A stretch of 63,244 bases of DNA, filler included, from Collodictyon triciliatum (taxonomy: Eukaryota): the NCBI GenBank assembly GCA_043381765.1. It is 5 parts of 5 records of this genome, joined end to end, with 100 filler letters (N's around TTAATTAATTAA, not from the genome) between each part and the next. Parts side by side here need not be neighbours in the genome. Positions count along the whole stretch, not along the records: positions 30,573 to 46,138 come from JBHJMP010001326.1; 4 more parts are not named here. One strand, 5' to 3'. A model generated the notes under the pieces. The model saw nothing but the letters and a program-made list of their open reading frames with translations. It was not told the DNA's origin and ran no database searches. The position numbers and the translations under genes are program-made. This document shows positions 37,201 to 41,047 of this stretch, one piece after another. How positions within the stretch are numbered: the stretch's first letter is position 1; every line of letters starts with the position of its first letter.

Positions 37201-40200
37201 ATTTTATCTCCATCTTGTCTAGCTCGCAACGAAATTATAAAAAACCCAGACGAATTGATATCTGGTGCCGAAAATACAGACGATTACATATTCTCGACAA
37301 CTTCCCAAAAGGCAGTACCCAGCAGACGAAGACATTTGGCGACCATTGATTCTGGCCCGAAACCAGAAAATGATTCCTCTCTTTCTCAACAAGCAAAAGG
37401 CCATGACGAGATGAATGAAGTTTCTGAGGCACAGAATTCTGGAGTGAAAGTGGAAGGAGAGGAAAAAAGGGAGACAGGGAAGGCTGCGCCTTCTTTCGTT
37501 ATCAAGTACGTACCACGCCAGTTCTCCTCCAATGTATATCCGACATTGTGCGATGCCAATTTCGAACAGCTGTCGGCCGAATGGAAGATTCAAAAGGAAT
37601 TCTCTGTATCCTTGCATATGGCTGGGCAAAGGCCTGAGATACTTGTAAATCATAAAGTAAGCTGCCATTATGCCGAGCATTTTCAAAATAACGTACCTTT
37701 TTCCATTCGCAAGAAATACTTTTATATTGTATACTAATGAAGAAACTTTAGAAAAAGAAACGCACCCCCAACCCAGAGTGCAAAACTGTTCTCGGCATTG
37801 GCGTTTCGCTACCTAATAGACGAACTTTTTACATCTCCTTGCAGACATCGGAGAGCAACAAGTAATCAATAATGACTATTCACTGAACTTACAGAGCTAG
37901 GAAGAATGACTAACTATATTTACGTTGTAAAAAAACTGGTAGAATTGACTTGATAAAGGAAGTGATGGGCTCCAAGTCAACTAGGAAAATACTAGCCAAC
38001 GCAAAGAGTGCGCTGCATATTTTATCAGGACTCGGATTCATAGGTTTGCAAATATCAAAGTACTGGAAAAATTGTGTTTCAAGCTTGTATGGTCATGCAA
38101 CGACGATTCTTCATCGTTAAAGTTAGAAACTTGAGTCTAATTTATACAGTTTGCGGACACGTATTTGATCCGCTCATTGCTGCATGGCTTCTAGACCCGG
38201 AGGTCGATGCAGAAAATATCTTTAAAATATTCCCTACCTATTCTCACGGAAAGAAGTCAATACCCAAGGTTTCACAGGAAGCAGATGCCGTATGTGCAGA
38301 GGTGATGATATATTACTAATTTTTACTATATGATAAGGCATAAGAAAAAAAGGGATGCATTGCTTAGGGTGTCGAGTTATTTTGTCTGAAATTTTATATC
38401 TGTATTCAATATTTTCTGTCATGCTAGGCAATGATCACCTTGGAAGTAATGCAAAATGTTGGAAAGGTTCTAGTTTTGCAGCAACTGTTGCCCGCGTTCA
38501 TTGATGTACGAATTCTGCACAAATACATCCTTTTTTTTTAAAAAAAAAACAAACAAAATAATTTTCCCGATGAAATCAAAAATACTTTTACGTAATAAAG
38601 ATAGAGATGGAGACAACAAAAATTCTATATGAAATGGAAAAGAATGGGCTATCTTTTTCCTTATCGAGTTGCCAATCGGCTGACGTTAGTAATCGATTTT
38701 TAGCTGGAAATGATATTGAATAAAATTTTGTTAAGTTGAAGAGCAAAGACATCATTTCAGTCAGCTCAACTGCCGTTTCATATTCTAGAGTATAATACAA
38801 AGACGAATATTTGAGTTGGAGCAACAATGCACTAGAATGGCAGGACGTGCTGTGAAGCTAACATCTCCAAAGGACATTCATCGTATTTTATTTGATGAAT
38901 TGGGTTTGAATCCCGATGTTGCTACCAGGGTGAGGCCACTGCCATTCGTTTCTTGGGATGTAGAGAAAATTGCACATAATAATATAGTCCTGGACTGTTT
39001 TTCTTTTCCATATAAAAGAAGGATAAAATCTTTTGCTGATATTTTGACTTTTTATTTTTTTCTCGTGCCACTTCAAAGGTCAAGTACGTGAAAGGAAAGC
39101 AAGTGATATTTTACAGTACATCGGAATCTGTACTACAGCAGCTCAGTCGCCAGCACCCACTCCCTGGAATTATCATGGAGCACAGAAAACTGATGCACAT
39201 NNNNNNNNNNNNNNNNNNNNNNNNNNNNNNNNNNNNNNNNNNNNNNNNNNNNNNNNNNNNNNNNNNNNNNNNNNNNNNNNNNNNNNNNNNNNNNNNNNNN
39301 NNNNNNNNNNNNNNNNNNNNNNNNNNNNNNNNNNNNNNNNNNNNNNNNNNNNNNNNNNNNNNNNNNNNNNNNNNNNNNNNNNNNNNNNNNNNNNNNNNNN
39401 NNNNNNNNNNNNNNNNNNNNNNNNNNNNNNNNNNNNNNNNNNNNNNNNNNNNNNNNNNNNNNNNNNNNNNNNNNNNNNNNNNNNNNNNNNNNNNNNNNNN
39501 NNNNNNNNNNNNNNNNNNNNNNNNNNNNNNNNNNNNNNNNNNNNNNNNNNNNNNNNNNNNNNNNNNNNNNNNNNNNNNNNNNNNNNNNNNNNNNNNNNNN
39601 NNNNNNNNNNNNNNNNNNNNNNNNNNNNNNNNNNNNNNNNNNGCGATATATCAATCAAGTCTTCGTTCGTGGCTCCGAAGGACTGTATTTTGTTGGAGGT
39701 AATATATCCATTTTTGGAGCTCAGGATTTTGGCACATGTCTCACAGGATGAGAAGCTTTCCTCTGCTATTTCCGAGGGAGGCGACGTGGTAAGTAGAAAA
39801 GAAAAGGCTTTCCTTTATAATCCATAAATTTTAGGTGCAAATATTTCCTTGCAAAACAATTCGTTGTCTGTTAGGGGGTTTTCTTATATATTTACTCATT
39901 TAATTCATGAAATGAAAATGGGGTTTTTTTTGTACTAGTTGACCGATTGTTTGATTTAACATTAGATTTCCAACGTGGCATCAAAATGGCTTTCGAAGGG
40001 AAAAGAAGAAACTAATAAGGACGAGAGGTACCGCTGCAAAAGACTTTTGGACTCTATCATCCAGGGACAGGACATTGAATATGTTTGCCAGGTAGCCAAG
40101 ATCAGTAAAGGAGAGGCCATTAGAATGATGGAGTCACTAAAGGAGGCCTTCCCAGCGTAAGCCAAATCATCACTTTCCGAAGCCTGCGCAGTGCACAATC

Positions 40201-41047
40201 GGCCATTCATGAAATGATGAAAATGCTGAGTCGATTTTTTTTGGTTGATTACTGATGCATATTTAGGATGAATGACTATCTCCGAAAGACCATAGCACAA
40301 GCACAACGCACCGGGTTCATATCAACAGTGTTTGGTATGAACAACATGTTTCTTTTCTTCCAGTGAGAGGCGTGCTACACCTTAGTGGTTTTAAAATTCT
40401 TCCATATAAGACCAACATAAGAGAAAAAATAGGAGAGTGATTAACAGAAGAACTTCTTTTCTCGCCAAATTGTCTTAGGTCGAAGGAGATATTTAGCTAC
40501 TCTTCAGTCGAAGTCAGCGTTTGAAAAGATAAAAGCTGAAAGACAGGTTTGCTTATTGTCTTGTGCCTGGAGTAGATGCATGCCACTACTAATACCATTT
40601 CCCCCTTTATTCGATTCAAAGTCCATTATTAATACCATAATTGACTATGAATCCACGACTTTGTCGTAAAAGATTTACACATATTTCTTTATCAATTCAT
40701 TCTCGAATGTGATTGAAATGCACTCTTTCACTTTTATTTCTTTTGACTCATCACAGGCCATCTCGCACTTGGTTCAGGGGTCATCTTCCGACCTGATGAA
40801 GCAAGCAATCATCCATTTGTATAACAGTTTGCAACAGGACGGAGACTTTGCAGCAGATGCGCGGCTGGTTCTTATGTTACATAACAGCTTTCTGTTTGAA
40901 GTGCCATCGACCAAAGTAGATGCCGTGATTCGGCGACTGAAAACGCTCGTGGAGAGCGTTTACGAGCTGAATCCTCCGCTACTCGCAGATTTCTACACAG
41001 GCACGACGTGGGGAAGCATGTCGCACTATTCCATGGATCATTCCTGA
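31229..41047 (+). CDS. POLQ: DNA polymerase theta (HELQ-like SF2 helicase plus family A polymerase domain, the latter predicted inactive), multi-exon
   Basis: Helicase motifs [72 protein letters not shown]; PolA region STSESVL..L...[39 protein letters not shown]. The 5' end may have an additional exon. Confidence 0.92.

Follow-up and report, generated by a model that had tools for sequence, protein, structure and literature searches.

The POLQ proteins of animals and plants (Mus308; TEBICHI) combine, in one polypeptide, a Hel308-type helicase, the POLQ helical domains, a linker, an exonuclease-like subdomain and a family A polymerase fold. In the human enzyme, DNA polymerase theta (Pol theta), D2330, D2540 and E2541 are described as the metal ligands of the polymerase site and Y2387 as stabilising the incoming nucleotide, while its polymerase and 5'-deoxyribose phosphate (dRP) lyase activities are both said to depend critically on K2383 (PMC9962433). 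The human helicase-like domain is reported to capture strands and to relieve them of RPA in an ATP-dependent manner, and Pol delta to cooperate with Pol theta (PMC12663940). Here we analyse a POLQ-like gene of 32 exons, on the + strand at about 31229-41047 of a 63,244-nucleotide stretch of DNA (filler included, hereafter the window) from the freshwater protist Collodictyon triciliatum (assembly GCA_043381765.1; positions 30,573 to 46,138, which hold the gene, come from JBHJMP010001326.1). The gene shares the architecture of animal and plant POLQ, and its best sequence and fold matches are with human Pol theta. Unlike animal and plant POLQ, the three metal ligands and both nucleotide-stacking aromatics are replaced, in this species as well as in an orthologue from Diphylleia rotans. 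We therefore consider it probable that this POLQ orthologue lost polymerase catalysis before the two lineages split, and that its polymerase domain has since been kept folded and non-catalytic.

Several described systems resemble this situation in part. Arabidopsis Pol theta engineered to lack its polymerase domain is reported to lose theta-mediated joining and to keep an extended-microhomology joining that depends on helicase activity only (PMC12153051). Such a helicase-competent, non-polymerising protein offers the best functional analogy, with the difference that here the domain appears to be naturally retained as a folded pseudo-enzyme. HELQ, Hel308 of archaea and the Pol theta-helicase found in Trypanosoma cruzi, an organism in which helicase and polymerase are described as encoded at separate loci (PMC6393585), belong to the same superfamily and also act as helicases without a polymerase of their own; unlike these proteins, which have no polymerase domain, the present helicase is followed by a complete family A fold. 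A polymerase fold kept non-catalytic in a DNA-transaction protein is also described in the C-terminal half of Pol epsilon (PMC2669801). That module, however, is of family B, universal in eukaryotes and located beside an active polymerase in the same chain, whereas here the sole polymerase module would be dead. Finally, the exonuclease-like subdomain of Pol theta itself is described as an ancestral catalytic module that now has a structural role only (PMC9962433), a loss which is common to animal Pol theta, whereas the loss of the polymerase site is so far known from these two protists alone. A full-text literature search, which did not extend to subscription journals and supplements, brought up no account of a POLQ whose polymerase site is naturally inactive.

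Polymerase active-site motifs and transcripts of the C. triciliatum gene

Motif A lies at 39690-39737, where phmmer pairs its exon with Klenow VIVSADYSQIELRIMAH. In this pairing, the ATA codon at 39702-39704 places an Ile (exon residue 20) on Klenow D705 (chain index 382 + 323), which corresponds to human D2330. Motif C, at 40880-40888, consists of the codons CAT AAC AGC and thus reads His-Asn-Ser where family A has His-Asp-Glu; when it is aligned to Taq, Q-V-H-D-E stands on M-L-H-N-S, Taq D785 and E786 (human D2540 and E2541) falling on the Asn and Ser at 40883-40888. Motif B, at 40026-40067, keeps its Arg and Lys, and shows Phe/Tyr replaced by Asp, Gly by Ser and Tyr by Gln. Its exon is strongly diverged, as phmmer against the PDB gives no polymerase and the match to Pfam DNA_pol_A (E=0.0013) is under the cut-off. 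The motif was placed on R..AK..NFG..YG both by a MAFFT alignment with 13 reference polymerases and through the alignment of the D. rotans orthologue with human POLQ.

The replaced positions are conserved in other family A polymerases. The motif A Asp is found in 52/54 comparators, the motif B Tyr in all 54 and the Phe/Tyr in 53, and motif C has its His in 54, its Asp in 53 and its Glu in 46, four more having Asp instead of Glu. In the alignment with the 13 references, the motif A Asp, the motif C His-Asp and the motif B Tyr are present in 13/13, and His-Asp is also found in all nine nearest matches to the last exon of the window gene. This conservation among comparators indicates that the changes in the window motifs go beyond chance variation. 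The Ile of motif A, the degenerate motif B and the His-Asn-Ser of motif C, which a first-pass annotation of this DNA had read from the sequence, are all borne out by these alignments.

One of the 54 comparators, P0122 (906 aa, encoded on a 30-kb metagenome contig), has itself Glu-Phe for Asp-Tyr in motif A and MQIHNSFLFET as motif C, the HNSFLFE stretch being common to this protein and to the window. It may be an unrelated second dead family A polymerase.

The reading frame of the gene is interrupted by a 442-N assembly gap, and a homology-guided splice model finds no stop in the 1647 codons before it nor in the 253 codons after it. Before the gap, exon borders come from this model only, and two donors are modelled as GC. 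After the gap, they could be compared with RNA. Four public runs were compared with 38750-41050; no public run contains as much as half of the sequence words of the stretch, and the small shares present in lake and freshwater metagenomes entered the comparison through these four runs only. X6, a metatranscriptome contig (depth 2.1), joins 39643-39787 to 39965-40044 with 0 differences, and carries the Ile of motif A and the start of motif B. X11, a contig from a polyA metatranscriptome (depth 3.9), makes the joins 40156/40267, 40334/40479 and 40546/40757, also with 0 differences. Four GT-AG introns are thus confirmed by spliced contigs from two RNA libraries, which agrees with the first-pass claim that frame and splice sites are preserved: over the 253 post-gap codons the frame is open, and the splice sites are used in RNA.

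Other contigs cover the same exons. X5, which spans 40699-41050, has listed differences at 40745, within an intron, and at 40945 and 40978, which are third-position and synonymous (read by eye), and none in 40880-40888. X1, a DNA contig from a freshwater metagenome, spans 39680-39878 with one unlisted difference, which cannot restore the motif A Asp because a single base change never makes an Asp codon from ATA. Its loose end beyond 39200 continues the frame as IKRSVVRNLI, where D. rotans has IKRSVVKNIM (read by eye), and X6 has 26 further in-frame letters upstream of 39643, the loose ends of both contigs thus extending the reading frame into the gap from either side. Two database open reading frames (ORFs) on 944-nt contigs, P0001 and P0151, encode the same last-exon protein as the window, P0151 (157 aa) differing from it only downstream of the stop.

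Two side observations were made on these contigs. The P0151 ORF reads the TGA of the gene as Trp and continues into the 3' untranslated region, a part that differs from the window; the contig was apparently translated under a code with TGA as a sense codon. Moreover, a 151-nt contig from the X1 run matches the polymerase exon at 38787-38862 with 11 differences in 76 letters, its upstream sequence being different, and a related lineage with its own gene copy may be present in the same water as the source of X1.

The Diphylleia rotans orthologue and constraint on the polymerase domain

The window helicase exon at 34191-34442 leads to P0209, an 83% identical EukProt transcript of D. rotans, whose cluster contains six isoforms, all from one Trinity gene. 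The longest of them, P0217 (1876 aa), carries both the helicase and the polymerase domains on a single transcript, and the window is colinear with its residues 137-1876 in ungapped tblastn. The C-terminus of P0217 matches the human POLQ polymerase (E=1.1e-59) better than Bst Pol I (1.9e-47), and its helicase matches the human POLQ helicase (5a9f; E=2.6e-172, 578.9 bits) far better than Hel308 (9b15; 1.2e-63, 218.6 bits). Pfam finds DNA_pol_A at 247.4 bits (cut-off 34.3) over profile positions 4-381, together with DEAD, Helicase_C and DNA_polI_exo1, and, after the RecA core, the POLQ-specific domains POLQ_helical (PF21099; E=5.2e-40) and HTH_61 (PF20470; E=1.1e-22), the latter two matches being on P0217, with which the window is colinear over those residues. 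The helicase motifs GGKT, DELH, SAT and QMAGRAGR are common to the window and D. rotans, and the statement of the first-pass annotation that the helicase motifs are all canonical thus holds.

The catalytic site of D. rotans is lost at the same positions. Aligned by HMMER, its motif A reads VELFFPFIELR (human aadysqlelr), with Phe at the Asp site; its motif B reads RYRFKRLLDSLLQG (human lrqqakqicygiiyg), with Asp, Ser and Gln as in the window; and its motif C reads LVLTNSVLLEV (human lqlhdellyev), Thr-Asn-Ser standing for His-Asp-Glu. A second isoform, P0214, has the same domain, which is whole in 2/6 isoforms. All three metal ligands and both nucleotide-stacking aromatics are therefore replaced in both species, with the Arg and Lys of motif B remaining. 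Of the features that mark a competent family A polymerase, the motif A Asp, the motif C Asp-Glu and the complete R..K...[FY]G..YG of motif B are absent from the window and from D. rotans, and the overall fold and Pfam family are present. The replacements are in part different between the two species (Ile/Phe; His/Thr) and in part identical (Pro-Phe, Asp-Ser, Gln, Asn-Ser), which indicates that the loss predates the lineage split and that the site evolved on afterwards.

Further homologues were sought in several ways. HMMER, run exhaustively with the last exon, gave 1410 matches at E<=0.001, in which the 100% identical ORF P0001 is followed by a match of 43% identity; the D. rotans orthologue is absent from it, probably because its cluster is represented by a sequence without the C-terminus. 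No longer homologue was found with the last exon among 79 candidates (proteins of 169-2000 aa). In a scan of metagenome contigs, 273 stretches matched the pattern and none was confirmed by tblastn, and the ESM Atlas searched with the D. rotans C-terminus gave generic family A phage clusters only.

Constraint was assessed by comparing the window with D. rotans part by part. Identity is 83% in the RecA core (317/380) and 78% over the whole helicase (553/713; D. rotans residues 432-1146), 62% in the thumb part (72/117), 46% in the post-gap fingers and palm (117/253), 41% in the exonuclease-like part (55/134), 37% in the linker (57/154; D. rotans 1147-1300) and 24% in the N-terminus (97/404, with 91 gap columns; D. 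rotans residues 1-418). Judged by these identities, the catalytic half now behaves like the non-catalytic exonuclease-like subdomain, yet it is clearly better conserved than the linker and the N-terminus, where constraint is lowest. The POLQ of Morus (P0212), tried as a control for domain rates in an active enzyme, was rejected as a flawed model, its helicase N-terminus being absent and an RVT_2 insert present, and was kept for motif columns only.

The open frame of this part is not what neutral drift would be expected to leave. When the 253-codon coding sequence is evolved neutrally to 46% self-identity, in a simulation that ignores indels and splice sites, only 1/2000 copies is stop-free, the mean being 7.7 stops. 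The family-conserved columns, defined by agreement among at least 12/13 references, number 52; both species keep 25 of them, both have lost 18, and 9 are lost in one species. The losses are grouped in motifs A (D, S, Q), B (A, N, F, G, Y) and C (Q, D), together with the histidine of DxH and the Asn of motif 6, and the kept columns include ELR, the Arg and Lys of motif B, G..T..R.R, AER and QG..D..K. Identity between the two species is also higher in the family-conserved columns (36/52) than in the other columns (80/199; Fisher p=2.7e-4).

The fold is predicted with confidence. AlphaFold models the D. rotans domain with a predicted local distance difference test (pLDDT) score of 88.3 and a predicted template modelling score of 0.89, with 446/624 residues at a pLDDT of 90 or more. 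In this model, the residue at the Asp site ends the strand 381-387, and the Asn-Ser lies at the turn of the 563-568/571-577 hairpin. The best Foldseek matches of the model are Pol theta polymerase domains (7zx0; E=1.8e-43, template modelling score 0.83), followed by Bst Pol I and Pol nu. The proposal of the first-pass annotation, a maintained pseudo-polymerase on an intact POLQ helicase, is thus supported by the loss shared with D. rotans, the open reading frames, the spliced RNA and the scarcity of open copies in the simulation.

Proposed role of the domain and rival explanations

According to the mechanism that we propose, the protein would act through its intact ATP-driven helicase, capturing and annealing single-stranded 3' tails and clearing RPA or RAD51. 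The pseudo-polymerase, in which the O-helix Arg and Lys, the RRRY block and the QG..D..K block are kept, could serve as a DNA-holding or scaffolding module, and fill-in synthesis would be carried out by a different polymerase, the first-pass annotation having likewise supposed that theta-mediated end joining here would need another polymerase or a paralogue. One possibility, which we put forward tentatively, is that the dead domain has been repurposed, either as a clamp for 3' ends or primer-templates or as a lyase-only module relying on the O-helix Arg and Lys; breaks would then be joined by helicase-driven annealing, with a separate polymerase synthesising.

Several points weigh against a domain that is both dead and maintained. 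We infer that the polymerase domain is dead from its residues alone. Its fingers and palm evolve far faster than the helicase (46% vs 83%), at rates near those of the exonuclease-like part and the linker, and the constraint on them is weak and could amount to a mere need to keep the fold. In the columns lost in both species, the two species have the same new residue in 11/18 cases, vs identity in 80/199 other columns, an excess that does not reach significance (p=0.13). The gap hides about 62 residues, equivalent to D. rotans 1558-1619 and including the GR..PNLQ motif. RNA evidence from the window organism consists of one low-depth contig per library, none lying over motif C and none bridging the helicase and polymerase exons. 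The comparison covers only two species with a lost polymerase site, and the name D. rotans is that given by the database. In addition, 4/6 D. rotans isoforms (P0209, P0215, P0216 and P0218) end before or inside the polymerase domain. Their early ends follow apparent retained introns, in one case immediately ahead of the motif A exon and in one immediately behind the motif B exon, and these short isoforms may be unspliced RNA or real helicase-only products. Finally, resistance to damage in mouse cells is reported to depend on the polymerase activity of Pol theta and not on its ATPase (PMC4183433), which makes a polymerase-free POLQ unexpected.

The faster divergence of fingers and palm, at 46% against the 83% of the helicase core, would also be compatible with two gene copies. 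A second, intact gene of POLQ/POLN type would then be in charge of synthesis, and the copy described here would have drifted, under relaxed constraint, towards a helicase-specialised role, its dead domain being a by-product of redundancy. A possible lead in this direction is an intact, POLN-like, polymerase-only EukProt transcript (P0003/P0219), the third-best match to the last exon of the window gene across the whole representative library. DYSQ, KRLCYGILYG and HDE are all intact in this transcript, polymerase nu is its best PDB match (E=2.4e-74), and its identity to the D. rotans domain is 29%; it is a lead only, and would be a candidate partner polymerase if it came from a diphyllatean. Redundancy, however, leaves unexplained both the open reading frames in the two species and the preferential conservation of the family-conserved columns. 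The search with the helicase exon gave a single D. rotans cluster, which argues weakly in the same direction, this search being word-limited (30 candidates). On balance, we consider a second copy to be an unlikely explanation.

Residual catalysis appears less likely still. A weak or non-canonical polymerase could use other carboxylates, or the domain could have kept only 5'-dRP lyase chemistry through its O-helix lysine, the residue which in human Pol theta (K2383) is reported to be needed for both polymerase and dRP lyase activities (PMC9962433). In both species a Glu stands two residues ahead of the lost motif A Asp, at a position where the 54 comparators have Ser (37), Ala (9), Asp (3), Thr (2) or Gly (2) and are thus acidic in 3/54 only. 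They also keep the Glu equivalent to Klenow E710 and the motif B Arg and Lys, and the O-helix block ERYR.KRLLDS..QGQD is among the best-conserved stretches between the two species. Against this stands the extent of the damage, as neither species retains the motif A Asp, either carboxylate of motif C, either stacking aromatic, the histidine of DxH or the Asn of motif 6.

A decaying pseudogene, or pseudo-exons leaving the polymerase part untranslated, could account for the loss of catalytic residues, for a motif B exon under the Pfam cut-off and without a polymerase match in the PDB, and for the early ends of several D. rotans isoforms. It is nevertheless very improbable, given 253 post-gap codons without stop or frameshift, splice sites that are intact and used, a D. 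rotans gene that is likewise open and transcribed, a neutral simulation that leaves a single open copy in 2000 and a confident model over the whole D. rotans domain. An assembly or sequencing artefact beside the gap, at the edge of which the motif A exon begins, or an RNA editing that restores the residues, can practically be dismissed in spite of the unlisted difference of X1 in 39680-39878, as X6, an independent RNA contig, shows no difference over motif A, X5, P0001 and P0151 agree over motif C, the D. rotans transcriptome has the same losses at the RNA level, and ATA cannot become an Asp codon by one base change.

Features of the window and significance of the gene

The coordinates of the gene parts, and those of an unrelated cluster of ORFs, are gathered in Table 1.

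Table 1. Positions of the POLQ-like gene, of its parts and of other annotated ORFs in the window.
Feature	Position	Strand	Remarks
Whole POLQ-like gene	31229..41047	+	27 exons before gap (1647 aa), 5 after (253 aa + stop)
Exon 1, long acidic poorly conserved N-terminal region	31229..32671	+	Open frame from ATG; no Pfam family matched
Helicase-domain exons (Hel308/POLQ type; winged-helix and helical parts)	32983..36894	+	Homology to D. rotans 432-1146
Helicase motif I (Walker A), GGKT	33091..33102	+	
Helicase motif II, DELH	33692..33703	+	
Helicase motif III, SAT	33901..33909	+	
Helicase motif with QMAGRAGR	34770..34793	+	Pfam Helicase_C on exon ORF, E=2.1e-9
Central linker exons	37022..37656	+	D. 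rotans residues 1147-1300
Exonuclease-like subdomain exons	37752..38505	+	41% identity to D. rotans; Pfam DNA_polI_exo1 on orthologue
Thumb-side polymerase exons, reaching gap	38601..39200	+	62% identity; Pfam DNA_pol_A at 38789-38960
Assembly gap, 442 N, inside polymerase domain	39201..39642		Directly upstream of motif A exon
Motif A exon, start within gap	39645..39788	+	Pfam DNA_pol_A E=5.2e-9, profile positions 140-186
Intron GT..AG, 177 nt	39789..39965	+	Joint in RNA contig X6
Motif B (O-helix) exon	39966..40156	+	MAFFT alignment, splice model, X6 in part
Intron GT..AG, 110 nt	40157..40266	+	Joint in polyA RNA contig X11
Exon, phase 1 end within Gly codon of GRRRY motif	40267..40334	+	
Intron GT..AG, 144 nt	40335..40478	+	Joint in X11
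Exon with RRRY and AERQ	40479..40546	+	
Intron GT..AG, 210 nt	40547..40756	+	Joint in X11, shorter side just 23 letters
Last exon: motif 6, motif C, C-terminus	40757..41047	+	Pfam DNA_pol_A E=4.4e-13; TGA at 41045-41047
Reverse-transcriptase fragment	48271-48984	+	RVT_1
Integrase	49661-50917	+	rve
D5-like primase-helicase, 775 aa	51626-53950	-	DUF5906
Packaging ATPase	54486-55211	-	Pox_A32-type

The intronless ORFs clustered at 48271-55604 suggest an integrated polinton-like virus or virophage-like element beside a retroelement remnant. The product of a multi-exon gene on the - strand, at 12975-16359, has plant-type leucine-rich repeats and, after them, a region rich in Cys, its Pfam matches to LRR_4 and LRR_8 being under the cut-off. 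Base composition is strikingly uneven: G+C-rich genes are located at 41786-42812, 46924-47454 and 60100-63244, vs 38% G+C in the POLQ gene, and comprise a coiled-coil ORF, a TCTP exon, uninformative as a taxonomic marker because its best matches are fungal at 55% identity, and, at 61134-62699, a class I/II aminotransferase. Paired N runs (44 + 44 bases, 12 between) at 11434-11533, 30473-30572, 46139-46238 and 57074-57173 look like a masking or scaffolding artefact, and larger gaps of 100-951 N are found elsewhere in the window.

Pol theta is defined, and targeted by drugs, through its polymerase. If the domain was indeed repurposed, the gene described here would be a natural separation-of-function Pol theta, in which helicase and polymerase fold would play a part independent of theta's own synthesis. 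A lineage that has long kept the whole protein without catalysis would provide a natural experiment on strand capture, RPA removal, end holding and hand-off, for example to Pol delta, and would bring a family A case to the few polymerase folds that persist as pseudo-enzymes. It would also be a warning for annotation pipelines, as the presence of a POLQ gene alone does not establish theta-mediated end joining.

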